Assembly (NCBI GenBank): GCA_017511925.1 | Contig: JAFWHS010000001.1 | Span: forward strand, 35 to 64,034 | Direction: 5' to 3' | Source of the DNA: Candidatus Saccharimonadota bacterium | GTDB taxonomy: Bacteria; Patescibacteriota; Saccharimonadia; Saccharimonadales; Saccharimonadaceae | Length of the DNA: 64,000 nucleotides | Shown here: piece by piece, positions 1,841-18,704 of the stretch | How the letters are laid out: each line of letters opens with the position of its first letter | How positions within the stretch are numbered: the stretch's first letter is position 1 | The notes under the pieces: model-generated | What the model was told of the DNA's origin: nothing | Database searches by the model: none | What the model saw: the letters and a program-made list of their open reading frames with translations, nothing else | Position numbers and translations under genes: made by a program

Positions 1841-2296
1841 ATGACAAAACGCCACCCATTCAAGAAAGCAAAACCCGGCGAACCAATACCAGTTACCGCC
1901 CGGCAACTTGAAAACTTTATGCTCGAACATAATGGTAGATTCAATTCGCGCGATTACGATAAGTTCGAGCGTATGGAACTAACTTGCTCCCCTGTCCGCG
2001 ACGCGATCCACGAACTCAAGACTTATTCCCTAGAAACCCTAGCTCAACGCTTCGATATACGCCTTTTAGGCCGCGGTAAGCGCGTTTTTGCGCGATTAGA
2101 TAGCGAAGACGACACTTGGTACCATTTCTCGCTTGCATACATTCCACGCGCGCTAAATAACCGCGACGTGAATGACGCGATGATTCAGATGTTTTTCATT
2201 GGCAAATGGAGAGTCGATAAGCTTTCGCTCTGGGCGGAGCCAGAAGATATCAACCATTACAACGACGATTCCAATGATTTTCATATTAAACCATAA
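1841..2296 (+). CDS. hypothetical protein, paralog of 7518-7958
   Basis: 151 aa; shares FSLAYIPRALNNRDVN(D/E)A, VTARQL and LWAEP blocks with the 146-aa protein at 7518; AGAGG sits 5 nt upstream. Confidence 0.6.
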   Translation: MTKRHPFKKAKPGEPIPVTARQLENFMLEHNGRFNSRDYDKFERMELTCSPVRDAIHELKTYSLETLAQRFDIRLLGRGKRVFARLDSEDDTWYHFSLAYIPRALNNRDVNDAMIQMFFIGKWRVDKLSLWAEPEDINHYNDDSNDFHIKP

Positions 2297-2903: not shown

Positions 2904-2930
2904 AGGTTTAGCATATGGTATAATATTGAT

Positions 2931-3245
2931 ATGGAAGAAGTCAAGGCGGCAGTGGTAAAATTCACAAAAGACAGAGACTGGGATCAGTTTCATTCCCCTG
3001 CCAACTTGGCAAAATCAATTGCGATTGAGTCCGGTGAACTTCTTGAATGCTTCCAATGGAACGATAACTACGACAAAAAGGAAGTTTGCAAAGAACTGGC
3101 CGATGTGGTTAACTACGCGATTCTCCTAGCCGACAAGCTCGACGTTAGTCTTGAAGATATTGTTATGGAAAAATTAGAGGAAAACTCTAAAAAGTACCCA
3201 GTTAACAAATCTAAAGGCAATAGTAAAAAATATACGGAATTATAA
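2931..3245 (+). CDS. MazG-like nucleotide pyrophosphohydrolase (YpjD/DCTPP1-like)
   Basis: 104 aa; FTKDRDWDQFHSPANLAKSIAIESGELLECFQW ... ELADVVNYAILLADKLDV...KLEENSKKYP is the all-alpha NTP-PPase signature; TGGTATAAT ends 6 nt before the ATG. Confidence 0.75.
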   Translation: MEEVKAAVVKFTKDRDWDQFHSPANLAKSIAIESGELLECFQWNDNYDKKEVCKELADVVNYAILLADKLDVSLEDIVMEKLEENSKKYPVNKSKGNSKKYTEL

Positions 3246-3246
3246 T

Positions 3247-4974
3247 ATGTCAGAAAAATCCTTCCAAATCAGAAGCTACTCTTTCGACCAAAAAGCAATC
3301 AGCAGCTTGGCCATAGAAGATCATTTAGAAGAAAACTGGCCAGTAGTTTATCAGATTTACAACAACCAGCAAATTTACATTGGCGAAACTACAAATCTTA
3401 AAAACCGCATGAACCAGCACCTAGCGAATGTCGAGAAGTCGAGCCTCAGACATGGATCAGTAAAAGTAGTTTTCGATGAAACGTTTAACAAAAGTGCTGC
3501 ACTAGATTTAGAGTCTTACCTTATCCAATATTTTAGCGGTGACGGAAAGTTTAAGGTTTTAAATCGCAACGACGGCATGTGCGACCGCGATTATTACGAT
3601 AGAGCCAACTATCGCAAAACTTTCGAAGAAATCTGGAACAGACTTCGCGAGCTAAAAATTGCTGATAAAACTATTTCAGAGATTAATAATTCCGAGCTGT
3701 TTAAGTTCTCTCCATACAAGAACCTAAACTTTGAGCAGCTAAATGTAGTGACTGAGATTATCCAAAATATCGACGAAGCCATTACGCACGATGTTAAAAG
3801 CCTTTCAGTTATCGATGGCGATGCTGGTACCGGTAAAACTATCGTTATTATGTATCTCGCAAAACTATTAGCCGATCTACAATCATTCGACAACCAAAAC
3901 GATGATATTGACGACGAATCAAACTTCAATATTTTCTTTGAACTGGAACATATTAACCAGAACTTTAAGAACAAAAGCATTGCCCTAGTAATTCCACAGC
4001 CATCACTATACGGCCGCATCCGTAAGATTTTCGACAAAATCGATCTCGGCGATGCAAATATTAGAATCTTTTCACCGATCCAATTTGGCAAATGTGACGA
4101 TAATTTCGACATTACATTAGTAGACGAAGCACATCTTCTGAAAGTTGGTGTTACTGGTACGCTAGGTAAACAAGTCCACGAGATTGACCAGAAGATTTTC
4201 GGCAATACCGGCATTCACTCGGAACTAGATTGGATCATGGCTAAATCCAAGAATGTAGTTCTAGTATTTAGCGACCAACAGCGCATTCGCCCAGCCAATA
4301 TTAATCGTAGCGATATCTTACAGTATGCAGACGAGTTTAATAAACGCGAATATTATCTCAAAACTCAAATGCGTTCGCTTGGCGGCAAAAAATATATCGA
4401 TTATATTCACGATATTCTGTCAAACGGCTTTAGGCCTAGAGAAAAAGAAACTTTCAAAGGATTTGAAGCGAAAATTTTCGATAACATCAAAGACTTTGCG
4501 GAAGCTATGGAAAAGCGTGAGGCTGAATATGGATTGTCTCGCATGGTGGCCGGTTTTGCTTGGAAATGGAATTCCAAAAACAATAAAAGCGCGTATGACA
4601 TCGAAATCGATGGCATGAAATTCCGCTGGAATAGCACTCAGAATAACTGGATCGGCTCCAAGAACGCGCCAAAAGAAGTTGGTAGCATTTACACCGTGCA
4701 AGGTGATGACCTAAATTATGTAGGAATTATCATTGGTAACGATTTGATTTATCGCGACGGAAAACTCGTGTTCAATCGCAAAGCTTGCGCAGATTCCGGT
4801 GCCATGAAGCGTAGTCAACGCCAAGTTGCTAATGATGAGCAAATCAATGAAGACGATATGCTGGAACAAGTGTTAAGAACCTACAGGATTCTCATGAACC
4901 GCGCAGTTAAAGGTGTTTATATTTATATTTGCGATAAACAATTAAACGAATATTTAAAACGATATTTCAACTAA
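3247..4974 (+). CDS. GIY-YIG nuclease domain fused to a DUF2075 / Schlafen-like P-loop ATPase
   Basis: 575 aa. The N-terminus VVYQIYNNQQIYIGETTNLKNRMNQH is GIY-YIG-like. There is a Walker A (DGDAGTGKT) and a Walker B-like motif (ITLVDEAH). The ATG is 1 nt after the mazG-like stop. Confidence 0.65.
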   Translation: MSEKSFQIRSYSFDQKAISSLAIEDHLEENWPVVYQIYNNQQIYIGETTNLKNRMNQHLANVEKSSLRHGSVKVVFDETFNKSAALDLESYLIQYFSGDGKFKVLNRNDGMCDRDYYDRANYRKTFEEIWNRLRELKIADKTISEINNSELFKFSPYKNLNFEQLNVVTEIIQNIDEAITHDVKSLSVIDGDAGTGKTIVIMYLAKLLADLQSFDNQNDDIDDESNFNIFFELEHINQNFKNKSIALVIPQPSLYGRIRKIFDKIDLGDANIRIFSPIQFGKCDDNFDITLVDEAHLLKVGVTGTLGKQVHEIDQKIFGNTGIHSELDWIMAKSKNVVLVFSDQQRIRPANINRSDILQYADEFNKREYYLKTQMRSLGGKKYIDYIHDILSNGFRPREKETFKGFEAKIFDNIKDFAEAMEKREAEYGLSRMVAGFAWKWNSKNNKSAYDIEIDGMKFRWNSTQNNWIGSKNAPKEVGSIYTVQGDDLNYVGIIIGNDLIYRDGKLVFNRKACADSGAMKRSQRQVANDEQINEDDMLEQVLRTYRILMNRAVKGVYIYICDKQLNEYLKRYFN

Positions 4975-4993
4975 AAACTACATAATTTAATTG

Positions 4994-6490
4994 TTATGTT
5001 TCATTATTATGGAACATGCCTTGTTTATTATTTCTAAAAACCAAATCATCAAACTTTTCGTGAAGTAAGTCTAATCTATGGCCTAGTGGAGCAATTTTCG
5101 CAGCATCGACTAAATTTCTTAAATCATTATCGTCCAAAGCTATTATGTAGCCATGATTGTCTATCATAGCATCTATGCACATTTTATTTATTCTTGTTCT
5201 ATTTGAAATTCTGCGAGATACTGATATCCCAAACTCGCCCTTGTCTGGGCCAAACCTTCCAGATAACTGATCAATTTCAGGATTACCAATATCGTCATTA
5301 TAATTTTTACACTCAATATACACATATGGAGCGTTAAAATGTTGCCCCAACCACCAGAAAAAGTCATCCTTATCCACATTGCTATATACTATATCCACAA
5401 TTTTACCACCATTGTTAATCCTTGCCTGATAATTTGGTCGAGCCAAATACGGATAAAACAATGCATTGAAGAGAGCTAAAATAGCAGTTTCATAATATTT
5501 CGCATTATCCCTACCAGGCATAGTTTCTAAGACTCTATTCAAAAGCAAATCGTAATCTACCGGCGGTGTGTCCATATAATCGGTAAAATCCTGATGCATT
5601 AAAGCTGGGCTCGGATTTTCATTTTTCTCTTTTTTGTATTGGGCTAATAGATCCGGATATTTTGTAGTATAATCATAATTCAACATCTTTAGATGCTTTT
5701 TATTTTCTATACCACGACGAGATAATACATCTTTTTTATATGGCAACTTCTGTTCGCCGGTTGTTTTTAGTATCCTCACCAAACCATCCGCAACATCTTC
5801 TTGCTGAAGCCTAGCCACTATATACTTGTTAAAGTATTCGTCTGCGCTATACGTTGCCTCTCTCCTTACTATAGATTTCGGCACTAACGTTAAGATATCT
5901 TCTCTACCGTCTATAACTACAACTGGCTGTCTAAAGCTTTTCGTCTCCCATATTCTCTTCTGCGGATTCCAAATTTTCTTGCTTTTCCTAACTTCAAGCT
6001 CAACACCAAACTGATCGAATTGCGTTTGTGTATATTCTATTAAAGGCTCCCTGATAATGTTCGTAACTATATCAGAAATCATATCAGAAGATATTCCCTC
6101 AATAAGAAGAATTGTATCTTCTATATCTTCTATCATGCCGCTCTTAATGGCGACACTCTCTTTTAGAGCATGCCACATTTTCACGGCTAATTTTTCCCCG
6201 ATGCCTCTTCCATTTGTCTTATTTTTTGAAAAACCCAACTTCGTTTCACTCGGTTCGCATAATTCTTTAAGTAAAGCTCTTGCTTTTTTATTATCACCTT
6301 CGTGCATGGTAGATAAGACATGACTAAAGTAGTCCTTTATTAATCTGCAACAACGTAGCCCCCACTCCGCCTTATCATTATTCAATGCAGCAGGATCAAT
6401 AAATAAACAGGAATCAGAGCACAAATCAACATCCACAAAGTCCAAAGATGGTTGATTGACCCCAAGATTATAATATTCGGAAACCCTCAT
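4994..6490 (-). CDS. hypothetical protein with a C-terminal PD-(D/E)XK nuclease-like motif
   Basis: 498 aa; GGKIVDIVYSN...(about 25 aa)...YVYIECKNY matches the D...(D/E)xK restriction-endonuclease-fold signature; convergent with 3247-4974. Confidence 0.5.
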   Translation of the reverse strand: MRVSEYYNLGVNQPSLDFVDVDLCSDSCLFIDPAALNNDKAEWGLRCCRLIKDYFSHVLSTMHEGDNKKARALLKELCEPSETKLGFSKNKTNGRGIGEKLAVKMWHALKESVAIKSGMIEDIEDTILLIEGISSDMISDIVTNIIREPLIEYTQTQFDQFGVELEVRKSKKIWNPQKRIWETKSFRQPVVVIDGREDILTLVPKSIVRREATYSADEYFNKYIVARLQQEDVADGLVRILKTTGEQKLPYKKDVLSRRGIENKKHLKMLNYDYTTKYPDLLAQYKKEKNENPSPALMHQDFTDYMDTPPVDYDLLLNRVLETMPGRDNAKYYETAILALFNALFYPYLARPNYQARINNGGKIVDIVYSNVDKDDFFWWLGQHFNAPYVYIECKNYNDDIGNPEIDQLSGRFGPDKGEFGISVSRRISNRTRINKMCIDAMIDNHGYIIALDDNDLRNLVDAAKIAPLGHRLDLLHEKFDDLVFRNNKQGMFHNNET

Positions 6491-6520: not shown

Positions 6521-7063
6521 TCAAAACACGAGCTCCTCGGCCAGAAAACACAGAAACAAAGAAAGATTGACGACCTCGCGGAAAAGTACGCCGAACTGGA
6601 CAAAGAGTCGCCAAAAGCCGTCAAAGACAAGCTCAAAAAGGACATGGCGGATTTGCAAAATGATGTTGTAAATATCGACGAAAGAATCAAGCAAATTGAA
6701 GCCAAAATTAAGAATCCTGAAAAATTGCGCTTGGGCCTAGAAAAGTTTTCGAACTCGCTAAATTCGCTAATTAACAGATTAGAAAAAGGAGATCTCGTCG
6801 AAAAGGACATTTTGGTCAGAAATATGGTTTCAAACCTCGAAATTGATGCACAAAAAAGGGTGATTTACAGATATAAATCACCATTTAATTTCATCTTCGA
6901 ACCTGAGTTTTCCACAGGTTCCCCTGTTGGTGAGCGACATCTCAACCTTTACGAACCTCTCTGTAAGACGATTGACTACATAATTCTGGACCCTACGTGG
7001 CGACCGACCTATATTCTGGTCGAAAGTAATATTATCAATAAACCAAGCGACTTTAGCTATTAG
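6521..7063 (+). pseudogene. 5'-truncated large serine recombinase (C-terminal remnant plus read-through)
   Basis: The open frame from 6521 aligns by eye to the last ~130 aa of the recombinase at 12941-14599 (KIDDLAEKYAEL..MADLQNDVVNIDERI..DILVRNMVSNLEIDAQKRVIYRYKSP vs ..DIASLQIERDEI..DQLARNLFTNLEINNKKEVSYRVKRP). The catalytic N-domain is missing. Confidence 0.55.
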
Positions 7064-7517: not shown

Positions 7518-7958
7518 ATGGCAAAAAGCCACATCTACAAAAAGCCAAGAAATGGCGATCCAATAGAAGTTACCGCAAGACAGCTAACTGAACTATACGA
7601 AAAGCACGAAGGCATATTGGCTTCACGTCAATATAAAGACCTGAAGAATATGGTGCTCGTCGATTCGAGCGTCCGCGACGCGAAACGGGCGCTAAGAGAG
7701 TTTGATGACGAAACTTTACTAGGAACTTGGGGTAAAGAAATACGTTACGGCTATGGAAAGCGCATTTATTTCCACTTAGATCGAGAAGATAAAGACAAAT
7801 ATTACTTTTCCCTCGCTTATATTCCGCGCGCCCTAAACAACCGCGATGTAAACGAAGCAATTTTGCGCATGTATTTTGTCCGGCGCTGGTGGGTTGATAA
7901 ACGCTTTTTGTGGGCTGAGCCAATTGATATTACGCCGAGCTACGGTCACGGTTTTTAG
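7518..7958 (+). CDS. hypothetical protein, paralog of 1841-2296
   Basis: 146 aa; same conserved blocks as the 151-aa paralog; GAGG sits 7 nt upstream. Confidence 0.6.
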   Translation: MAKSHIYKKPRNGDPIEVTARQLTELYEKHEGILASRQYKDLKNMVLVDSSVRDAKRALREFDDETLLGTWGKEIRYGYGKRIYFHLDREDKDKYYFSLAYIPRALNNRDVNEAILRMYFVRRWWVDKRFLWAEPIDITPSYGHGF

Positions 7959-8226: not shown

Positions 8227-9720
8227 TTATTTTATACTAGCAGTTTTAACGATAAATTTCACCGATTCGGCATTTACCCCACCAAAACTCCGATATGAGC
8301 CAGCCGCTGTTACCATTTGGCGTGCATTCCTAGTAAACCCAGCTAAATCATTATTTGCAAAATTAACTAATTTATCAATTCCACTAGTTTTCAAAGTGCC
8401 AAGACCATCCCGTAAGGCTACAGAACCCGCATAAAGCTGCTCCTCTCCCTCGACTAGACTACCTAAGCCCACCGTGAGCGCCGGGGCTTTCTCGGCGATT
8501 GTAGATAGCCCCATGGCCAGTCCCACAGACCCTTCCGCCGCTGTCGCCACCCCTGTAGTGTAATTAATTAAGCCACTATAAAAATCGTTATAACTATTTA
8601 GCTGTGTTTTCAAGGTCGTAGTGCTCGTCGCATCACCACCAATCGCTGTCAAGAAAGCCGCCAATGTGTCCAAAGTTTCGCCGTAATTATCAATCGTTAG
8701 TGTAATCGGTGCGCTCAAACCATACGCCCCGCCATAGAGCGAAATTGCTCCTATTAGCGTCGCATTGGCATTTAATGTTGCGTTCGCTGAATCCAGCAGA
8801 GAATTAAATACGCTCGTCGCTCCCGTTGTTAAACTATCATTATATCCAGTTAGTTTTGTAAGACCTGTCGATAATTCTTCCGCCCCTGTTGCCGCACTTG
8901 CAACTCCCTCAGATAATGCTTCCGCTCCAGCATATAATTCTTTCGCTCCAGAGAGAGCCGATTCGATTCCATTGGTAAGCGTCCCCGCCCCGCTAATTAG
9001 CTGAATGGTCCCACTTTCGAGCTCATTCATCTGACTAATTAGCGAATCTACCTCTGTCAATTTCGATGTGTCTATCTCTGCGATCAACTCGTTCATCAGC
9101 ATTGTGTATGTCGTCCCAAGTGCAAAATCTTTCACATCCGCCTCTATTGCGAATTCCCCTGGTAAGAAATCCGTTCCTAAATCTTCATTTGCCCCTAGTA
9201 CTCCATACCCCATCACTAGATAATCACCATTTTCGCTAACGATTTTCCCATTCGTGAGTTTTATATTACTAAATTTTGTTTTATCTAACTGCGCCCCAGT
9301 TACCGCCACGAATGGTATTTTTTTACCTTGATAACTTGCCGTTGCATCATAATTAAACACGATTTTTACTCGGCCTGTTTTGCCGGCTATTTCTGTTGCG
9401 CTCACTTCTGTTCCATCCAAATAATATCGCACTTTCATTTCAAACGGCAAATTCTCATTTCCACTGTAGAGCGTACTCCCAATAAAAGTACTTTTCGTCG
9501 CCCCATCAGCCCCTGCCATTACATATACAGTTTCGTTTTTGCTCCCCAGTGTTCCGCCAAAATTTACATTAGATAGATTGTTCTCCATCGCTAGCGCTCT
9601 CGTTTCAGCCAGCGTCGGCGCTTCCTCGGCTCTCGCCCTCATTTCGCTTGCTACCATCATCCCCGCACCGCCAAGTACTGCAAGCGTCAGCAATCCCCCA
9701 TAAATCACTTGTTTCTTCAT
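8227..9720 (-). CDS. secreted/anchored protein with X-X-X-Leu-X-X-Gly heptad repeats (YhgE/Pip-like, MMPL-associated)
   Basis: 497 aa; N-terminal signal/TM segment; central repeats (LISGAGTLTNGIESALSGAKELYAGAEALSEGVASAATGAEELSTGLTKL); 4-nt ATGA overlap with the upstream MMPL gene. Confidence 0.55.
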   Translation of the reverse strand: MKKQVIYGGLLTLAVLGGAGMMVASEMRARAEEAPTLAETRALAMENNLSNVNFGGTLGSKNETVYVMAGADGATKSTFIGSTLYSGNENLPFEMKVRYYLDGTEVSATEIAGKTGRVKIVFNYDATASYQGKKIPFVAVTGAQLDKTKFSNIKLTNGKIVSENGDYLVMGYGVLGANEDLGTDFLPGEFAIEADVKDFALGTTYTMLMNELIAEIDTSKLTEVDSLISQMNELESGTIQLISGAGTLTNGIESALSGAKELYAGAEALSEGVASAATGAEELSTGLTKLTGYNDSLTTGATSVFNSLLDSANATLNANATLIGAISLYGGAYGLSAPITLTIDNYGETLDTLAAFLTAIGGDATSTTTLKTQLNSYNDFYSGLINYTTGVATAAEGSVGLAMGLSTIAEKAPALTVGLGSLVEGEEQLYAGSVALRDGLGTLKTSGIDKLVNFANNDLAGFTRNARQMVTAAGSYRSFGGVNAESVKFIVKTASIK

Positions 9721-11795
9721 TTTTTACTTCCTTTCGTTAATTTTTTCATCCCTAGAGTTGTGCGAATAATCAAGGGGTCAGCTAATACCAATAGTGGCGG
9801 TAAGAATAATGGCACCGTTATTACCGAAAGCACCGCTCCACGCGCCATCAGCATCGTTAGTGATGAAATCATATCCGCCTGAGAGTATACTGCCACCCCT
9901 ACCGTCGCTGCAAATAACACCGCCCCCGATACGATAATCGACGGAATTGATGTTTCGAGCGCTACTCTCGCCGCTTCTTTTTTATCTAATCCATCCAACC
10001 GCTCCCCCTTATATCTCGTTGTCATCAAAATCGCATAGTCCACCGTCGCCCCAAGCTGAATCGTACTAATACAAATTGGCGCAATAAACGAGAGCGACTG
10101 CCCCATAAAATACGACAGCCCGATGTTCACGAAAATCGTCGTCTCTATCACCGCAATCAAAATCACCGGCAGTGACAAAGAGCCAGTCACGATTAAAATA
10201 ATCACAAAAATTACCACGATCGATACTGAGTTTACTGTCGCAAAGTCCGTCGCCGTCACCCCTATCATATCTTGAGTCAGCGCCGCCTCACCGACTAGCA
10301 GCGCCGATTTGTCATATTTCTTCAAAATCTCGTTAATCTGATTAATCTGCTCCGCCATCTCGTCCGTCGCCGTAGAATACTCCGAAATCGCAAGCGACAT
10401 CTCCCATTTGTCTGATTTCAAAACCTCCGCCACCCCTTCCGGCAACATCTCTACTGACACATTCTCACCCAGCAGACTCTCGAGATTTAGTACCGTCTTT
10501 ATCCCGTTTACCTCTTTCAATTCCTCAGTCATCGCCGTCGCCTCCGCCTGTGGCAAACCTGCATCTGAGAGAATCATATGGACATTGGATAACCCAAAAT
10601 CCTCCTCCAATTTCTTATTTGCCACTGCAAAATCCATTGTCTGCGGCAATCCGTCGCTTAGGGTATAATACACATTTTCATTCGCTTTCTGATAAGCGTA
10701 GAGAAACGGCGGTATTATCGTTACGAAAACCACCAGTAGTACAGGGGCAAACTTCACGATTTTGCTAGACACGTGCCTAAAATTCGGCAAAATCAACTTA
10801 TGGTTGCATTTCTGGAGCGCCTTATCAAATGTCAAAATTAGCGCCGGCAGCACCGTCACCGCTCCAAGTACTCCTAGTATTACTCCCTTTGCCATTACTA
10901 GCCCTAGATCAATACCTAGTGTAAACGACATAAAACAGAGCGCAATAAACCCTGCCACCGTTGTCGCCGACGACCCCACCACTGAGCGTAGTGTCGCCTT
11001 GACCGCTTTCTCCATCGCAATCTCAGAGTCTTTCTTTCGTTTTAGATACTCTCGGTACGAATGCCAGAGAAAAATCGAATAATCCATCGTCACTGCGAGT
11101 TGCAAAATTGCCGACAATGCCTTCGTGATATAAGAAATCTCTCCGAATATTACATTTGTCCCCATGTTAATCAAAATCATTATCCCAATTGACGCCAAAA
11201 ACAACACCGGTATCAACCAGTTATCCAGTAGCACCAACATCACAATCAGCGCCAACACCACCGCAATAATCACATAAAACACCTCTTCCTTCTCTGATAA
11301 TTCGCGTAAATCCGTAATAAACGCCGACATTCCCGATACGTAAATATGCCTATCTATCAGTCCTCGGATTTCTTTTACTGCCGTAACCGTCTCGTCTGCA
11401 CTTGACCCTGTATCAAAAAACACCGCAATGATCGATTCATCGCCCTTCACTACCTTTTCATAGATTTCGTCTGGCAGTATCTCTGGCGGAATCCCCGCCC
11501 CCTCTAGGCTACCTAGTCCCAAAACTGTATCTACATGTCGAACATCGCGGATTTTTTCTTCTAGCTTTGCTTGTTCAGCGAACGGTAAATCCTCTGTAAT
11601 CACCATCGAAAACGCCCCTTTTCCAAAGTTCTCTAACAGTTCATTCTGACCAATTACTGTGTCCGTTTCACTTGGTAAATAATTCAACATATCATAGTTC
11701 ACTCTTGTCGCAAAAGATCCAATCACAGACGGTATCAAAAGTAATAGCGCTACTGTCAGAATCCATTTCCGATATTTAACCACAAATCTTCCCAT
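9717..11795 (-). CDS. MMPL/RND-superfamily membrane transporter
   Basis: 692 aa; two blocks of about 5-6 TM helices separated by soluble loops; typical MMPL layout. Confidence 0.7.
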   Translation of the reverse strand: MGRFVVKYRKWILTVALLLLIPSVIGSFATRVNYDMLNYLPSETDTVIGQNELLENFGKGAFSMVITEDLPFAEQAKLEEKIRDVRHVDTVLGLGSLEGAGIPPEILPDEIYEKVVKGDESIIAVFFDTGSSADETVTAVKEIRGLIDRHIYVSGMSAFITDLRELSEKEEVFYVIIAVVLALIVMLVLLDNWLIPVLFLASIGIMILINMGTNVIFGEISYITKALSAILQLAVTMDYSIFLWHSYREYLKRKKDSEIAMEKAVKATLRSVVGSSATTVAGFIALCFMSFTLGIDLGLVMAKGVILGVLGAVTVLPALILTFDKALQKCNHKLILPNFRHVSSKIVKFAPVLLVVFVTIIPPFLYAYQKANENVYYTLSDGLPQTMDFAVANKKLEEDFGLSNVHMILSDAGLPQAEATAMTEELKEVNGIKTVLNLESLLGENVSVEMLPEGVAEVLKSDKWEMSLAISEYSTATDEMAEQINQINEILKKYDKSALLVGEAALTQDMIGVTATDFATVNSVSIVVIFVIILIVTGSLSLPVILIAVIETTIFVNIGLSYFMGQSLSFIAPICISTIQLGATVDYAILMTTRYKGERLDGLDKKEAARVALETSIPSIIVSGAVLFAATVGVAVYSQADMISSLTMLMARGAVLSVITVPLFLPPLLVLADPLIIRTTLGMKKLTKGSKK

Positions 11796-12888: not shown

Positions 12889-12940
12889 TATGACGGCCAT
12901 GCTCTGCCATTTTTACCTCTGTTATGGTATAATAACTCTA

Positions 12941-14599
12941 ATGAAAGTCAAGCCGATTGCGGAACAAAAACAAGGACAAGGCGAACAGCCATTACTTAGA
13001 TATGTTTTGTATGCTCGCAAATCTTCCGAAGATGTCGGCTCACAAGCTAAATCACTTCCAGACCAAATCGCAGATTGTCTGAAATATGCCGAGGATAAAG
13101 GTATTGTCGTCGTAAACACATTGAAAGAATCGCATTCGGCGAAAATTTCTGGTAAACGCCCAGTTTTCACTCAAATGTTAAAAGACATTGAAGCTGGAAA
13201 ATACGACGGCATCTTATCTTGGCATCCAGACCGTTTAGCCCGTAATTCACTCGAAGCCGGAATGATAGTTGATATGGTGGATAGTGATAAGATTAAAGAC
13301 CTAAAATTCCCGACACTAGAATTTACGAACGATTCAAGCGGTAAACTACTCTTAAACATTATGTTTGCGATGTCTAAGCAGTATTCAGAACATTTAAGCG
13401 AGAGCGTTCAGCGCGGTGTTGATTCTAATCTTGCGCAAGGTAAATCTGGTGGCGTGCCAAAATGGGGGTATATTCGCGACGAGATAACCGGACATTACAA
13501 ACCAGATGAAAACTTTGACCTAGTAAAGCGCGGTTTGGAAATGTATATCGAGGGGTATAGCCAACGCGATATTATTAAGTTTTGGCGCGAGCATGACGTT
13601 CATCGTATGACGAAGCTAACGCGCAGAAACAAAAATGTTCGCAAGACCACTATTTACAGTAGCGAATCACCAATTAGTACAATTCTAAACGATCCATTTT
13701 ATTACGGCGTTCTCGTTCAAGGCGGTCAGAAAGTAGATTTAAGAGAAATCCTGCCAGACTTTCAACCAATGCTTACTGAAGAGCAGTTTGAACAAATTCA
13801 AGCTCTCCGCCATAAAATTAAGAAGATCCCGACTGCTTCAGTTAAAGCCGAAAAGGACAAAGTATTCATTCCGTTTCGCCAATTCGTCAAATGCGGCATT
13901 TGCGGAAATTATATGCACGTAGCGCGTTCAACCGCCAGGAATGGAGATAAATTCCTTTACTTTCGTTGCGGAAATTCAGAATGTAGCCGTAAGCAAAAGA
14001 ATATCCGCGCACAGTATATCTTAAACGATATTTATGAAACCTTAGAAGCGCTCCATTTTACGAAGAAAGACGTAATAAAAATCCAAAACAGCTTAACTGA
14101 TTATATTAACATCCGCCATAACGAACTTATTGAGGAAAAATTGCGCGTAAGCGCCGCTATAAAGGCCAAGAAACGCCGCCAGGGCGAACTTTCACAAGCT
14201 TTCATAGACTTAGGTAGTGACGCGCCAAAAGAAGCGAAGAAGATGGTAAAAGAGCAATTAGAAGAATGTCGCGAAGATATTGCGTCGCTTCAAATTGAGC
14301 GCGATGAAATTAACAACAAGATCTTTGATCCAGACCAAGTTCAAGAAATTCTGGACGAGCTTACGAACCAGCTAGATTCCTTGAGCGACAAGATGAAATC
14401 CGGCGATTCTTGGCAAAAGGACCAATTAGCCCGAAATCTATTTACGAACCTAGAAATTAATAACAAAAAAGAGGTCTCTTACAGGGTAAAAAGACCTCTT
14501 GAATCATTGCTCTCTGGGCGTTTGACCGAGAAATCTCGGTCTGGTGAGCCGGGTGGGACTCGAACCCACGACACCAAGCTTAAGAGGCTCATTGTCTAA
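12941..14599 (+). CDS. large serine recombinase (resolvase domain + recombinase domain + zinc ribbon + coiled coil)
   Basis: It has YVLYARKSSED (catalytic Ser), HPDRLARN, and CGICGNYM...FRCGNSEC (zinc ribbon). I prefer the ATG at 12941 (TGGTATAAT ends 7 nt upstream); the track starts at 12890. The last 19 codons overlap a tRNA 3' half. Confidence 0.85.
   Translation: MKVKPIAEQKQGQGEQPLLRYVLYARKSSEDVGSQAKSLPDQIADCLKYAEDKGIVVVNTLKESHSAKISGKRPVFTQMLKDIEAGKYDGILSWHPDRLARNSLEAGMIVDMVDSDKIKDLKFPTLEFTNDSSGKLLLNIMFAMSKQYSEHLSESVQRGVDSNLAQGKSGGVPKWGYIRDEITGHYKPDENFDLVKRGLEMYIEGYSQRDIIKFWREHDVHRMTKLTRRNKNVRKTTIYSSESPISTILNDPFYYGVLVQGGQKVDLREILPDFQPMLTEEQFEQIQALRHKIKKIPTASVKAEKDKVFIPFRQFVKCGICGNYMHVARSTARNGDKFLYFRCGNSECSRKQKNIRAQYILNDIYETLEALHFTKKDVIKIQNSLTDYINIRHNELIEEKLRVSAAIKAKKRRQGELSQAFIDLGSDAPKEAKKMVKEQLEECREDIASLQIERDEINNKIFDPDQVQEILDELTNQLDSLSDKMKSGDSWQKDQLARNLFTNLEINNKKEVSYRVKRPLESLLSGRLTEKSRSGEPGGTRTHDTKLKRLIV
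14542..14590 (-). pseudogene. 3' half of a split tRNA-Lys(CUU)
   Basis: rc = GAGCCTCTTAAGCTTGGTGTCGTGGGTTCGAGTCCCACCCGGCTCACCA. This covers the anticodon loop, 3' anticodon stem, variable loop, T arm, 3' acceptor strand and CCA. There is no 5' half adjacent. Confidence 0.85.
14580..14590. repeat. 11-bp direct repeat TTAAGAGGCTC (left junction of E2)
   Basis: Identical to 21122-21132; corresponds to the anticodon loop plus the 5' anticodon stem of the split tRNA. Confidence 0.85.
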
Positions 14600-14662
14600 T
14601 TATGAATATTTACTAAATTAACAGATAAAACAAGTCATCAAATATATTCACAAATATGCCCC

Positions 14663-14685
14663 GCCACCTTATTTTGCCACCTTAC
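14663..14685 (+). repeat. tandem GCCACCTTA(T/C) motifs near the E2 left end
   Basis: GCCACCTTAT-TTT-GCCACCTTAC; the same arrangement occurs at 20983-21004. Confidence 0.5.
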
Positions 14686-14690
14686 AACAT

Positions 14691-14717
14691 AAAAAAGCAC
14701 CCTTTCTGGTGTTTTTT
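14691..14717 (-). terminator. terminator downstream of tRNA-Lys
   Basis: AAAAAAGCACC-CTTTCT-GGTGTTTTTT; on the minus strand the T-run follows the stem immediately 3' of the tRNA. Confidence 0.45.
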
Positions 14718-14725
14718 GGTGATTT

Positions 14726-14802
14726 TGGTGAGCCGGGAGAGACTCGAACTCTCAACACCCTGCTTAAGAGGCAGGTGCTCTAACCAGTTGAGCTACCGGC
14801 CC
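14726..14802 (-). tRNA. tRNA-Lys (anticodon CTT), intact, with encoded CCA
   Basis: rc = GGGCCGG TA GCTC AACTGGTTA GAGC A CCTGC CTCTTAA GCAGG GTGTT GAGAG TTCGAGT CTCTC CCGGCTC A CCA. All four stems pair, with one G-U in the acceptor stem. Confidence 0.9.
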
Positions 14803-14910
14803 AAAACCCTACACATATTATACCACTTATCTGTAAAAAATGGAAGAGAAAAAACACAAATGCTCAAAGGGCCCCTTTTAAAAGAGGCCCTTTAATAGGA
14901 AAAATAAGAA

Positions 14911-16020
14911 TTAACTTAAAATTAATTTACCAAGTTTTGTTGATGCCATCCGCTCACATTCAGAATTCGCGTGTTGATATATCCTCAATGTCATTTCAAG
15001 CGTAGCATGCCCTAAAATACTCTGGCAAGTCTTCGGATCAACACCCTCATCACGCATAAAACATGCCGCCATATGACGAAGTGCATGGATCTTAATATGT
15101 GGCAACCCTGCACGCTTTGCTATATTCTGAAAGTCCCTATAAAAGTTTCTCGGTGCTATAGGAGTGCCATTTCTAGTTTGGAAAATTAACCCACTTGCTC
15201 CAGGAACAAATCGTTCTTTTAAAATACCGATTAGCCATTCATTTAAAGGCAAAGTTCTATCACTTTTATCCGTCTTTAACTCACCAACTCGAGGTCGATT
15301 ATCAATGCTAACAATTTGTTGCTTTATATGAATACGCTCGTTGGAGAAATCAACATCTTCCCAACGAAGGCCTAACACCTCGCCACGCCTTAAACCATAA
15401 TTTGCCATCAAAGCATAAGCTGCATAATAAGGACTCGTATTTTTGGCCTCGGCTAAAAATTTTCTTAACTGTTCTTTATTCCAAACAACAGGCTCTTTAG
15501 GTTTAATTGTTTTAACTTTGTAATCTCTTGCAGGATTGTTGAGGACATATTTGTGTTTCTTTGCACTAGTCAACATAGATGATAGGGCTTTTTTAGTAGC
15601 ACGCGCTTGATGTTTTGAATGTTTTTTAATTAATTTAAAAAGTCTCTCCACATCGTTCACATCAAGATTAGCAAGCTTTTTCTTACCTAATATAGGCAAA
15701 ATATACTTTTTATATAGTCTCTTATATAACTCTACCGTAGTCGGGCGTAGGCCAACATCTTCATCACTAATCTCTTCTAACCAACATTCGTAAAACTTCT
15801 CGACAGTTATACCTGCCCCCATTGTGATCTCACCTCTATCTCGCTGCGCTATGCGTTGTGCTAGTTGTTTCCTGGCCTCTTCTTGAGTCCTGCAACAGAT
15901 ATCTTGCATGACTTTATGTTCTCCAGTTGGCAACACCACAGTATATCGTGCAGCCCAACGACCATCCTTGCGTTTACTAATTGAACCAGATCCTCGTGGT
16001 CCTCTTTTTGTTTTACCCAT
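14911..16020 (-). CDS. tyrosine recombinase / phage-type integrase
   Basis: 369 aa; N-terminal SAM-like domain; C-terminal LRRGEVLGLRWEDV, HALRHMAA, LGHATLEMTLRIYQH (R..HxxR..Y catalytic pattern). Confidence 0.85.
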   Translation of the reverse strand: MGKTKRGPRGSGSISKRKDGRWAARYTVVLPTGEHKVMQDICCRTQEEARKQLAQRIAQRDRGEITMGAGITVEKFYECWLEEISDEDVGLRPTTVELYKRLYKKYILPILGKKKLANLDVNDVERLFKLIKKHSKHQARATKKALSSMLTSAKKHKYVLNNPARDYKVKTIKPKEPVVWNKEQLRKFLAEAKNTSPYYAAYALMANYGLRRGEVLGLRWEDVDFSNERIHIKQQIVSIDNRPRVGELKTDKSDRTLPLNEWLIGILKERFVPGASGLIFQTRNGTPIAPRNFYRDFQNIAKRAGLPHIKIHALRHMAACFMRDEGVDPKTCQSILGHATLEMTLRIYQHANSECERMASTKLGKLILS

Positions 16021-16021
16021 T

Positions 16022-16444
16022 TTAATATCCTCCTATTCCGGCCATCTCTCTAGCCTCATTAACCTTTTCTTCTAAAAAATTATTCAATTCAACAACAGGG
16101 ATCAATCTTCGTCCTCCTAGCTTAAAAGAAGGTAACTCATTTGCGTAAATAAGATCATATACCAAATTCCTTCCTATGCCTAAATAATTTGCGGCTTCTC
16201 TTACTCCCACTGCTCCTTTATTCCTAAAGCATATAACATTACCTTTATCAAACAACATGCTCATATCCCTATTATTGCGCGCTTTGACTATCACGTCAGC
16301 CCCTATAATGGCATTTTCTTCTGAAGGGGTGGCGAGAATATCTTTTTTATTACCCAAGCTCTCAAATAACGAGTGCATGTAGCTTGTACCGTCATTTCTG
16401 ATGTTGTTTTCCAACCTATTAGTTAATAGTAAATTCTTCATCAT
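16022..16444 (-). CDS. excisionase-family helix-turn-helix protein
   Basis: The C-terminal VREAANYLGIGRNLVYDLIYANELPSFKLGGRRLIPVVELNNFLEE is a MerR/Xis-type HTH. The start is chosen at the ATG with AAGGAGG 6 nt upstream; the track starts at 16468. Confidence 0.6.
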   Translation of the reverse strand: MMKNLLLTNRLENNIRNDGTSYMHSLFESLGNKKDILATPSEENAIIGADVIVKARNNRDMSMLFDKGNVICFRNKGAVGVREAANYLGIGRNLVYDLIYANELPSFKLGGRRLIPVVELNNFLEEKVNEAREMAGIGGY

Positions 16445-17591
16445 CTTTATCCTCCTTATTATCCTCATAATGAACTAAGCTTGTTCCTATATTATTTATG
16501 GTCTCCCCAATAATTTGAATATACGGATATTCAACCTTGCTATCCAATAATACAAAGAGTTCTTTCTTCGTCCGACTCCACAACCTACTATCGTTATATT
16601 TGCAAAAGGCTTTTTTCACTTTATTTAAGCCGCATTCTCCAGTTAATATCGAAAAACCTAATTTGGCAAAAGACTTTTGCGGAGAATTACTCATCAATAA
16701 ACTCTCAATAACCTCTAATTGATGATCTGGCCCTAGCGGTTCAATCTCTGTTCCAATTGTTTTCACTAACCTTCCCCAATATTTCATCAGGAATTTACGA
16801 GCCAGGTCTGCAGAAAACATATCTTTAAAAGTAATCCTATCTGTCGATTCATTTAAAGATTTAAGATCAACCTTTAGCTGCTTCGTGTTTTGTTCTTGAA
16901 CCTCTACCCTAACAACCTGCAAAAGATTAGCATCCTGTAAACCAATAAATAATTTTTCTATATCACACAAAGAGTCAGATGTATTACGAATTTCTGCAAT
17001 TTTATCATAGACAATTAATTGTCTCCCTTTTGGCCCCTCCCTATAAAGATCCCCCACTCTATACTGAACTTGAGCATACCTAGAGCCTATTCTATGCTCT
17101 GACCGCTCCAAAATACTTGCTAAAGTATTCGTTGATGCTCGTCCTGGCAATATTATATTTTTACCAAAGTCCACCCTTCTTACAATAGCTCTCCGAATAT
17201 CATCCTGCGTAATTTTATTAGGTAGATTTAACAATTTTAACTTACTATACAATTTACCTACCACATCTTCAAATTGATCTTCCCCTACCTCCACAATATT
17301 ATTTCCATATAGAAACTTTGGTACGGACATTGTGATACGATAAGCAGAACAATATAGACGACGATCTCCCTTCTTTTTTAATGGATTAGGATAATAAACA
17401 TAATTAACTTGTGGTAAATATTCTCCTGGGACAATTTCACCAACTGGCCAACACAATTTTATATTTTGATATCCAACAAAACTTCCTTTTCCATCGCTAG
17501 TTTTCTTATTTGTGATTTCAACTGTAGTCTCAAAGTCCTTTTCATCTAAACGTTTTCCTATTGTTATTTCTAATGTGACCGTATCGATCAT
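16419..17591 (-). CDS. putative rolling-circle replication initiator (phage/plasmid gene II/X-like)
   Basis: 390 aa. The N-terminal MIDTVTLEI and ITMSVPKFLYGNNIVEV resemble the MIDxLxL... and SxPKxLxGxN blocks I recall from the II/X Rep family. The assignment is from memory only. Confidence 0.45.
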   Translation of the reverse strand: MIDTVTLEITIGKRLDEKDFETTVEITNKKTSDGKGSFVGYQNIKLCWPVGEIVPGEYLPQVNYVYYPNPLKKKGDRRLYCSAYRITMSVPKFLYGNNIVEVGEDQFEDVVGKLYSKLKLLNLPNKITQDDIRRAIVRRVDFGKNIILPGRASTNTLASILERSEHRIGSRYAQVQYRVGDLYREGPKGRQLIVYDKIAEIRNTSDSLCDIEKLFIGLQDANLLQVVRVEVQEQNTKQLKVDLKSLNESTDRITFKDMFSADLARKFLMKYWGRLVKTIGTEIEPLGPDHQLEVIESLLMSNSPQKSFAKLGFSILTGECGLNKVKKAFCKYNDSRLWSRTKKELFVLLDSKVEYPYIQIIGETINNIGTSLVHYEDNKEDKDDEEFTIN

Positions 17592-17639
17592 GATGTTCCC
17601 TTTCCTCGGCCAAATACCGAGATTAAAATTAATAATGAT

Positions 17640-17655
17640 CGATAATCGATTATCG
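17640..17655. promoter_or_regulatory. 16-bp perfect palindrome upstream of the rep-like gene
   Basis: CGATAATCGATTATCG lies 49 bp upstream of the Rep-like start, followed by GTACGTAC (17659-17666). Confidence 0.4.
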
Positions 17656-17805
17656 TTTGTACGTACTCAACTAATTCTTATTACGACTTATTAACATTCC
17701 GTTTTCAAATTCGTTTTTTAATTAGTCTACCCCAATTATCTAGCACATCAAAAAAACGGTCTGCAGAAGTAATATTACTTAACAAAGATAAACTTCGATT
17801 AACCC

Positions 17806-18303
17806 CTAGAAATTAGGGTCGAATCGATATCCAACATTTCGTTCCACTGGTATAAAATTATGCTCAATTGCTCCAGTCGCCGCATGAAAAGTTCTACGCA
17901 TCTCTGTCAAATAGCGTGTAAGAGTCTTTTCATCTATTCTATTCCTCGATTCAAATAATATCCCTAGTAATTCCCTACTATTTAGGGCTCTCCCATTATC
18001 ACAATAAGCTGCCACCAAGGCCACCGCAATAATAGCCTTAGCACATGAAAAATCACACGACTTATTGTCATAATATACCTGTTTATCATCAAACGAAAAC
18101 TTAGTATCACCAACCTGTGTTACCGGCAAACTAGTCTCTACCTTAAAAACATCATTCCTACTAACAATCTGAATTATTCTTTCACCATCTATATTTATCT
18201 CGGTATCAGAAATAACTTTACCATTATTATAGTTAACATGCACATCAGCTGGCACCACTATAATTCGTATATTACTCTCAACATGGAAACTTTTTTCTGC
18301 CAT
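17806..18303 (-). CDS. winged-helix (OmpR/PhoB C-terminal type) DNA-binding protein
   Basis: The C-terminus SRELLGILFESRNRIDEKTLTRYLTEMRRTF....PVERNVGYRFDP is Trans_reg_C-like. I prefer the ATG at 18303, directly after the upstream stop; the track uses a GTG at 18330. Confidence 0.55.
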   Translation of the reverse strand: MAEKSFHVESNIRIIVVPADVHVNYNNGKVISDTEINIDGERIIQIVSRNDVFKVETSLPVTQVGDTKFSFDDKQVYYDNKSCDFSCAKAIIAVALVAAYCDNGRALNSRELLGILFESRNRIDEKTLTRYLTEMRRTFHAATGAIEHNFIPVERNVGYRFDPNF

Positions 18304-18305
18304 AG

Positions 18306-18704
18306 TCAAATAGTCTCCACTTTTACCCACCTACCATCATTACCGACAAGAGAACGATCCAATATACCGATATCTATAAGCACTACATACTTTGTCGACA
18401 ATACGGAACCTCCCCGAAAAAGACTGCGCAGAAACTTTTCAGAATCAACAATAAGATCAGGGTTCTCGTCCTCCATATCATCACGACTCACAATAAATGG
18501 CTCAAGATCCTCAATGACCTGAGCATCATCAAACAACCCCTTTGCCTCTATTGTCAAACTTCCATTTTTATTTGCAAATACGCCTATAATAGTCCTTCCC
18601 AATCTGTTCTTTAAAGAAGATAGGAGGTTATTATCTAAACATTTTACAAAATAGATCCCTTCCCCATCTATACCACTAACAATTCTATCATCTAGACTGT
18701 CCAT
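18306..18704 (-). CDS. hypothetical protein
   Basis: 132-aa ORF, co-directional and contiguous with the winged-helix gene. Confidence 0.45.
   Translation of the reverse strand: MDSLDDRIVSGIDGEGIYFVKCLDNNLLSSLKNRLGRTIIGVFANKNGSLTIEAKGLFDDAQVIEDLEPFIVSRDDMEDENPDLIVDSEKFLRSLFRGGSVLSTKYVVLIDIGILDRSLVGNDGRWVKVETI

Follow-up and report, generated by a model that had tools for sequence, protein, structure and literature searches.

The window analysed here is a 64,000-nucleotide (nt) stretch of contig JAFWHS010000001.1 from a Candidatus Saccharimonadota bacterium. The subject of this report is a pair of adjoining genes within it, encoding a MazG-like nucleoside triphosphate (NTP) pyrophosphohydrolase of 104 amino acids (aa) and a 575-aa protein with a GIY-YIG nuclease domain and a DUF2075, or Schlafen-type, helicase core. 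A first-pass annotation made from the sequence had put this pair forward as a candidate two-gene defence module. Its gene coordinates agreed exactly with the open reading frame (ORF) listing and with direct reading of the DNA, the first gene stopping at 3243-3245 and the second starting at 3247. Read from its sequence, the unit is a self-contained two-gene cassette consisting of a putative promoter, the MazG-like gene and the GIY-YIG/Schlafen-type helicase gene, laid out as follows:

2916-2924, forward strand: predicted extended -10 element TGGTATAAT, 6 nt before the MazG ATG at 2931
2931-3245, forward strand: MazG-like ORF of 104 aa, stop codon TAA at 3243-3245 (ORF listing and direct reading)
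3243-3249, forward strand: stop/start junction TAAtATG with a 1-nt spacer and no Shine-Dalgarno sequence, a putative translational coupling site
3247-4974, forward strand: ORF of the 575-aa GIY-YIG/SLFN-g3 helicase protein (ORF listing and direct reading)
3331-3576, forward strand: GIY-YIG nuclease domain, about aa 29-110 (PF01541, conserved residues and structural model)
3799-4935, forward strand: helicase/ATPase core (DUF2075), aa 185-563 (PF09848)
3817-3840, forward strand: Walker A motif GDAGTGKT, aa 191-198
4123-4134, forward strand: Walker B motif DEAH, aa 293-296

The smaller protein matched the MazG-like family PF12643 with 65.3 bits (cut-off 27; 6e-18) and could be aligned over its full length (aa 2-104) to chains of mammalian dCTP pyrophosphatase 1 in the PDB (6sqw, 2a3q; E=5e-18). 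The acidic residues of the EXXE...EXXD signature are present, with E33, E36, E55 and D58 corresponding to the metal ligands E63, E66, E95 and D98 of mouse DCTPP1. Among the 75 partner MazG sequences E33, E36, E39, E55 and D58 were invariant, as were the aromatic residues W17, W43 and Y62. The MazG-like protein is, by homology, an all-alpha NTP pyrophosphohydrolase related to DCTPP1/RS21-C6, and it looks catalytically competent.

The larger protein matched the GIY-YIG family PF01541 at aa 33-95 (42 bits; cut-off 22.6) and PF09848 (SLFN-g3_helicase, formerly DUF2075) at aa 185-563, over positions 2-354 of the 354-position profile (196.7 bits; cut-off 24; 8.6e-58), so that all three domains named in the first-pass annotation lie above their Pfam cut-offs. 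An NCBIfam scan returned nothing informative. Residue conservation was read from an alignment of 60 diverse full-length relatives with 30-87% identity. Within the nuclease domain Y44, G46, E47, R54, H58, E89 and N106 are invariant and Y35 is kept in at least 90% of the relatives; within the helicase core G191, G194, G196 and K197 of Walker A, D293 and E294 of Walker B, Q485 and G486 of a superfamily 1 (SF1) motif V-like TVQG, and R552 are likewise invariant, and H296 of Walker B is kept in at least 90%. An AlphaFold model built on the same alignment (predicted local distance difference test, pLDDT, 88.9; predicted template modelling score, pTM, 0.88) folds aa 33-99 as strand-strand-helix-helix-strand-helix at high pLDDT, with strands at 33-38, 42-48 and 71-77 and helices at 51-60, 62-67 and 82-99. 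A fold search with this model gave human SLFN11 (7zel) as the best match, followed by the SF1B helicases Upf1, Sen1, nsp13, RecD2 and Dda; the whole-chain search retrieved no GIY-YIG structure because the helicase part dominated the matches. No Schlafen (SLFN) chain was reached when the family sequence profile was compared with the PDB, SLFN11 being reached by the fold search alone. Taken together, the 575-aa protein looks like a catalytically competent GIY-YIG nuclease fused to a Schlafen-group-3 SF1-type helicase.

Conservation of the pairing was surveyed from the helicase side in one genome per species (185,579 species genomes), which gave at least 598 matching stretches, of which the best 80 loci, each from a different species, were kept. 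A MazG-like ORF directly adjoins the helicase gene in 74 of the 79 testable loci, the one further locus ending at a contig edge. The MazG-like gene lies upstream in 73 of these 74 paired loci and immediately downstream in the remaining one (L058); the paired loci come from Saccharibacteria and from numerous genera of Actinomycetota, with identities of 37-97%. For the five loci lacking MazG, a hidden Markov model built from the MazG matches found no further copies, and tblastn found no degraded remnants upstream. The pair is also present in six of ten IMG/VR loci, including relatives at 25% identity and a flipped gene order, and on Bacillus cereus-group megaplasmids, where a "nucleotide pyrophosphohydrolase" gene directly precedes a GIY-YIG/DUF2075 gene (29-32% identity).

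A second survey started from the MazG side, with 80 metagenome loci found by the MazG alignment, 73 of them testable. A DUF2075 gene adjoins MazG in 43 of the 73, and in six more loci it lies 0.4-1 kb downstream, past the adjacency cut-off, the gap in L112 being filled by a 269-aa ORF. Several of these helicase partners have no detectable GIY-YIG domain, so the link to MazG seems to be tied to the DUF2075 core. Moreover, the pairwise identities of the two proteins are correlated (r=0.75 over 73 loci); within Actinomycetota the correlation is r=0.51, a value reached by 0 of 999 Mantel permutations, indicating that MazG and helicase are inherited as a unit. The pairing is far beyond chance and obligate-looking across phyla. 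The domains and the co-occurrence on which the first-pass annotation had staked its proposal, and for which it had called for a survey, were thus both found, the latter in nearly every relative examined.

Not every relative follows the same plan. In a sizeable subfamily (P0129, P0138, P0145, P0150, P0163, P0176, P0194, P0227 and P0248) the GIY-YIG/DUF2075 protein has a LexA/UmuD-type Peptidase_S24 domain at its C-terminus, and this subfamily also has MazG upstream. Locus L085 encodes the S24-fused P0138 with MazG upstream; L087-L089 are likewise paired and have equally long helicase ORFs, candidate members of the subfamily. The fused domain might point to an activation switch in which RecA filaments trigger self-cleavage. 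A MazG-DUF2075 fusion, considered as Rosetta-stone evidence, was rejected, the longer relatives carrying a C-terminal Peptidase_S24 or an N-terminal HSDR_N domain instead. L103, L105, L107 and probably L108 (about 3968-4964) contain close MazG homologues (67-68% identity) without a DUF2075 partner; an ORF of 223 aa that overlaps the MazG stop in L103 and L107 and has no Pfam match may be an alternative partner. Finally, a 183-aa MazG-like gene in L102 (2326-4298) is followed by a gene for a protein with a Schlafen AlbA_2 nuclease domain, a single case suggesting that either half of the Schlafen architecture of eukaryotes may have a MazG-like partner.

Conservation extends to the tight coupling described by the first-pass annotation, which takes two main forms. 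The two genes overlap by 14 nt in 55 Actinomycetota loci, where the helicase ATG is placed within the C-terminal MazG codons (KYDxL*), and the Saccharibacteria-type junction, found in eight loci, consists of TAA or TAG, one nucleotide and ATG; overlaps of 4 nt occur in a few loci. Antitoxin and toxin genes are classically laid out in this way, a small gene overlapping a larger one downstream, and the pair might accordingly be read as a toxin-antitoxin-like or abortive infection module, in which a self-toxic nuclease-helicase would be restrained by the MazG-like protein, through binding or through destruction of an activating nucleotide, until infection tips the balance. One S. aureus homologue of the nuclease-helicase Nhi was toxic on induction (10.1101/776245), the failed cloning of a B. 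thuringiensis pair (SG193, see below) could reflect toxicity, and the LexA-type S24 autopeptidase subfamily suggests triggered activation. We nevertheless consider this reading unlikely: five loci carry the helicase gene without MazG and L003 carries it with a frameshifted MazG, the two genes stand in the opposite order in L058, L090, L092 and 12 metagenome loci, and the metal-binding residues of MazG are all invariant, which suggests an enzyme acting on a pool of substrate and not a protein that simply binds. The copy of the 575-aa gene in L003 is identical, and the MazG gene beside it (9686-9999) has a 1-bp deletion leaving ORFs of 65 aa and 52 aa, which is either a real loss or an assembly error; this locus also has GmrSD, a deoxycytidylate (dCMP) deaminase and an HNH gene.

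The boundaries of the cassette are sharp. Copies in different Saccharibacteria contexts (83-99% identity) are homologous from 2913-2915, just ahead of the -10 box, as far as the stop codon of the helicase gene, and the surroundings of the cassette change with nearly every genome. Of 11 Saccharibacteria copies, 10 retain the arrangement TGnTA(T/C)AAT-N6-ATG, while the DNA further upstream is unrelated between copies, and no Shine-Dalgarno sequence precedes the MazG ATG at 2931 on direct reading. This comparison gives good support to a leaderless-type promoter travelling with the cassette, as predicted in the first-pass annotation, and the conserved promoter geometry together with the stop/start coupling implies a leaderless bicistronic mRNA. 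Contigs from runs labelled as metatranscriptomic span both genes, one of 2161 nt covering 2915-4926; these contigs prove neither a transcript nor its start, since they are assemblies of 90-95% similar variants with unrelated upstream run-on and may derive from DNA. A 12-bp perfect palindrome at 2878-2903, just upstream of the -10 element, is part of the preceding DUF3892 gene.

Such boundaries and the many insertion contexts in Saccharibacteria would also suit a selfish mobile cassette, in which the GIY-YIG domain, a common homing-endonuclease fold, would spread the cassette among hotspots with no benefit to the host. Homing endonucleases, however, do not carry a 400-aa SF1 helicase, nor do they retain, across phyla and at 30-40% identity, a pyrophosphatase partner whose active site is intact, and MazG also pairs with DUF2075 proteins in which no GIY-YIG domain was detected. 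We therefore regard a purely selfish cassette as very improbable.

Among the matches listed, the closest relatives (83-97% identity) are from Candidatus Saccharibacteria/Nanosyncoccus of ruminant and gut metagenomes, and the next approximately 70 genome matches, within the best 80 of at least 598, are all from Actinomycetota at about 37-42% identity. Saccharibacteria are epibionts of Actinomycetota; given this lifestyle and the position of Actinomycetota as next relatives, gene transfer between host and epibiont is plausible, though inferential. The cassette was also found on megaplasmids and on contigs classed as viral.

Clustering of the flanking genes identified no third conserved gene, the largest neighbour cluster being present in 9-10 of 79 loci; these frequencies are approximate, since the gene caller was crude and missed some genes in high-GC loci. 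The commonest immediate neighbour, found in eight Actinomycetota loci (L019, L022, L027, L028, L029, L046, L074 and L076), is a protein of about 1,000-1,100 aa with PLD, ResIII/Helicase_C and DUF3427 domains, the McaZI type. NERD proteins lie near the pair in six loci, HNH proteins and DNA methylases were also found, GmrSD with dCMP deaminase occurs in L003 and Mrr in L062. A neighbour on Bacillus plasmids (L182, 3089-4012; L183) is an HNH_2 protein 72% identical to SG194, the untested "DNA/RNA-binding+HNH" candidate of Millman et al. Neighbours in Saccharibacteria include a KAP NTPase, NERD, a UvrD-like helicase, a YobI ATPase, Mrr, DUF3800, SPFH, GmrSD and HNH proteins. The flanks of the pair are thus variable and often contain defence genes, notably modified-cytosine-dependent restriction enzymes.

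DCTPP1 and other enzymes of the MazG family are house-cleaning enzymes, and GIY-YIG is the fold of the UvrC nuclease. The pair could accordingly serve housekeeping repair and pool sanitation, with MazG removing non-canonical deoxynucleoside triphosphates (dNTPs) and the GIY-YIG helicase processing, in a UvrC-like manner, DNA that had incorporated them; the metabolic genes that flank many Actinomycetota copies and the negative defence test of one related construct (SG192, see below) are in line with this. A housekeeping function appears doubtful, however, in view of the sporadic spread of the family (at least 598 matching stretches among the species genomes searched), the absence of conserved synteny, carriage on megaplasmids and viral-classed contigs, the discrete cassette hopping between Saccharibacteria contexts, and enrichment beside restriction-type nucleases.

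The reading that we favour, with a probability of roughly 55%, is defence against phages or other invading DNA by an Nhi-like nuclease-helicase that has its own (d)NTP pyrophosphatase as partner. The defence reading is plausible on the strength of the pairing, the coupling, the co-inheritance, the intact active sites, the defence-rich flanks and the precedent of Nhi. According to this model, a leaderless bicistronic mRNA would yield both proteins, as the promoter geometry and the stop/start coupling suggest. The SF1/Schlafen-type ATPase would load on foreign replication or recombination intermediates and translocate, and the GIY-YIG domain would cut the foreign DNA, both steps being modelled on the intact motifs and the analogy to Nhi. 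The least certain step is that of the DCTPP1-like partner, which might hydrolyse (d)NTPs, plausibly dCTP or 5-modified dCTP, and so starve or sanitise the nucleotide pool of the phage. MazG-like domains have been proposed elsewhere, in a recent paper, as NTP-targeting effectors of another defence family; an action on the dCTP or modified-dCTP pool follows more weakly from this proposal, the homology to DCTPP1 and the type IV restriction neighbours. The "nucleotide-depleting" role assigned to MazG in the first-pass annotation is accordingly one possible role.

Several observations weigh against this interpretation. The 575-aa protein contains no domain for reading modified bases, and the substrate of the MazG-like enzyme cannot be told from its sequence. 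In Actinomycetota many of the genes beside the pair have ordinary roles in metabolism or transport. PADLOC has no named system or model for the pair and gave no MazG match, and the large protein matched Nhi, PDC-S14 and PDC-S41 only in part, so that the PADLOC run proposed in the first-pass annotation returned partial single-domain matches and no system. The Nhi match (30.4 bits, aa 90-208 against profile positions 112-223 of 470) fell short of membership in the Nhi model. SG192, the only related construct put to the test, did not protect E. coli or B. subtilis against any of 26 phages (10.1101/2022.05.11.491447). Lastly, the five loci without MazG and the frameshifted copy in L003 show that MazG is dispensable for carriage of the helicase gene. 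The structure and pairing of the candidate defence module hold as first described, and its function stays a matter of inference.

A narrower variant would direct the pair against phages with modified DNA, the DCTPP1-like enzyme destroying 5-modified dCTP such as 5-methyl- and 5-hydroxymethyl-dCTP. Cytosine-modifying phages would then be deprived of their protective nucleotide or, alternatively, salvaged modified nucleotides would be kept out of the host chromosome, which would otherwise become a target. The nuclease-helicase would work beside modification-dependent restriction enzymes, and the S24 fusions of a sister subfamily would add RecA-filament sensing as a trigger. The variant fits the homology to DCTPP1, the PLD-helicase-DUF3427, SG194-like HNH, GmrSD with dCMP deaminase and Mrr neighbours, and an earlier remark on McaZI-like genes (see below); we put it forward tentatively, as an improbable refinement.

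Should the pair prove to be a working defence, a nucleotide-pool enzyme would be the fixed partner of an Nhi/Schlafen-type nuclease-helicase, and two antiviral themes, DNA degradation and dNTP control, would be linked in one operon. Both halves have human homologues, DCTPP1 and the SLFN helicase domain, and the family is widespread, occurring in Actinomycetota, on Bacillota megaplasmids, in Saccharibacteria and in many metagenomic lineages, and is missed by current defence-annotation tools. The earlier negative test concerned one homologue from a different subfamily; a better-targeted test is justified by the conserved coupling, by active sites that have stayed intact and by neighbours of the type IV restriction class.

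Within the window the cassette sits in a variable hotspot, with these further features downstream:

4994-6490, reverse strand: DUF8370 protein of 498 aa (PF28123, precomputed; PADLOC PDC-M36A, 4e-46)
6644-7063, forward strand: 139-aa ORF matching only the C-terminal part of integrase family phrog_95 (positions 493-585 of 651)
12890-14599: large serine recombinase, whose 3' end carries a 58-nt tRNA-like partial copy (14542-14599)
14911-16020, reverse strand: tyrosine integrase, after tRNA-Lys

The DUF8370 gene converges on the cassette, its stop codon lying 19 nt from that of the 575-aa gene. The first-pass annotation had described it as PD-(D/E)XK-like, and the label is reasonable: D366...E393-x-K395 is invariant among 37 DUF8370 relatives, and the structural model (pLDDT 89.5) gave weak fold matches to Nt.BspD6I, FokI and MspJI, making a FokI/Nt.BspD6I-type PD-(D/E)XK endonuclease likely. 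The protein also matches phrog_27295 over its full length (2e-104), and the PADLOC search of seven neighbouring proteins found no match to the PDC-M36B partner. DUF8370 was considered as a third component and rejected, being absent beside most pairs and from the variant contigs of the RNA-labelled runs. Rare as the family is, three independent contexts place it close to a MazG-DUF2075 pair: the window, L013 (Paeniglutamicibacter, 9530-10696) and L177 (Saccharibacteria, 5001-6467), the last with a helicase lacking a detectable GIY-YIG domain. Elsewhere the gene stands alone. The co-occurrence with the pair probably reflects a common defence-island habitat.

The ORF at 6644-7063 is probably the remnant of a serine-recombinase-like gene beside the block, and a piece 67% identical to it is present in L005. 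The tRNA-like copy at 14542-14599 is 79% identical to tRNA-Lys at 14726-14783, and the tyrosine integrase is followed by an HTH_17 excisionase-like gene and a Phage_CRI-type replication protein, which suggests a small element integrated at tRNA-Lys (12890-18704). Serine recombinase, tRNA-Lys and tyrosine integrase lie 8-12 kb from the cassette, and no direct repeats delimiting an island around the cassette were found. The mobile island of the first-pass annotation is thus partly supported, by the recombinase remnant and the distant integrase genes, and is better described as a variable hotspot. Two paralogues with 50% identity and no Pfam match, of 151 aa (1841-2296, forward strand) and 146 aa (7518-7958, forward strand), lie on either side of the MazG/helicase/DUF8370 block. 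The 151-aa family turns up again close to the cassette in L003, L005, L008 and L062 (86-90% identity), and these proteins may mark a variable hotspot in Saccharibacteria. Between 8227 and 12476 lie genes for a YhgE/Pip-like membrane protein (497 aa, reverse strand), an MMPL transporter (692 aa, reverse strand) and a divergent TetR regulator, which appear unrelated.

A search of the literature found no paper that treats the MazG-DUF2075 pairing in its main text: none contained both "DUF2075" and "MazG", none relevant combined "MazG" with "Nhi" or with "Schlafen", and the papers on bacterial Schlafen proteins concerned the AlbA_2 RNase domain and did not mention MazG or DUF2075. The helicase-like domain of human Schlafen group 3 (SLFN11, SLFN5, SLFN14) belongs to the same Pfam family as the window protein, in which the AlbA_2 RNase domain of Schlafen is replaced N-terminally by GIY-YIG, and the identity is about 11%. 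DCTPP1/RS21-C6 (PDB 6sqw, 2a3q, 2oig) shares with the window MazG the acidic metal ligands and an aromatic pocket of W, W and Y, the window protein being a minimal 104-aa form in which mouse H38 aligns with V8; we know of no helicase-nuclease partner for DCTPP1. DUF2075 NTPases beside McaZI-like genes, some fused to GIY-YIG, were already remarked upon in NAR in 2019 (PMC6765204). McaZI-type PLD/helicase/DUF3427 enzymes are neighbours in a minority of our loci, in mixed orientations, are absent from the window and do not qualify as a component.

The nearest earlier encounter with the pair is the candidate "Pyrophosphatase" in Table S2 of Millman et al. (2022, 10.1101/2022.05.11.491447), who picked 45 candidates by their association with defence genes and challenged them in E. 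coli and B. subtilis with 26 phages, 21 giving protection. This candidate comprises SG192 (Bacillus firmus LK28), a 98-aa MazG-like gene with a 643-aa DUF2075 gene, marked "x", and SG193 (B. thuringiensis Lr3/2), with the two genes in the opposite order and the entry "Cloning failed"; we read the marks "v", "x" and "Cloning failed" as verified, no defence and untested, which fits the entries, the column header being unseen. SG192 resembles the window pair in having a pyrophosphatase of about 100 aa beside a DUF2075 protein, and the two MazG proteins are 41% identical. Its DUF2075 protein, in contrast, aligns with that of the window in the P-loop region alone (27% identity), and its N-terminus, which looks PD-(D/E)XK-like by eye, did not align to the GIY-YIG region. 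By sequence comparison, the SG192/SG193 helicase is of a different subfamily, with a different N-terminal module. As the first-pass annotation had remarked, the pairing has no name, neither in PADLOC nor beyond the label "Pyrophosphatase" of Millman et al.; it is unnamed but not unnoticed, an earlier defence-island-enriched candidate tried once without success.

The closest verified parallels are Nhi (SERP2475) of Staphylococcus epidermidis, a validated single-protein anti-phage defence with a PD-(D/E)XK nuclease joined to DUF2075, in which both nuclease and helicase motifs are needed (Bari et al., 10.1101/776245), and Nhi-like (SG141) of Bacillus cereus, a verified defence with the same nuclease and DUF2075 plan (Millman et al. 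2022, 10.1101/2022.05.11.491447). Both resemble the window protein, whose motifs are intact, in their N-terminal nuclease, DUF2075/SF1B-type helicase and length of about 600 aa. They differ from it in that the N-terminus of Nhi is PD-(D/E)XK and that of the window protein GIY-YIG, and in that Nhi and Nhi-like act alone, whereas the window protein has a dedicated MazG partner with a putative translational coupling. What is new here is a nuclease-DUF2075 plan with GIY-YIG in place of PD-(D/E)XK, together with a fixed MazG partner.

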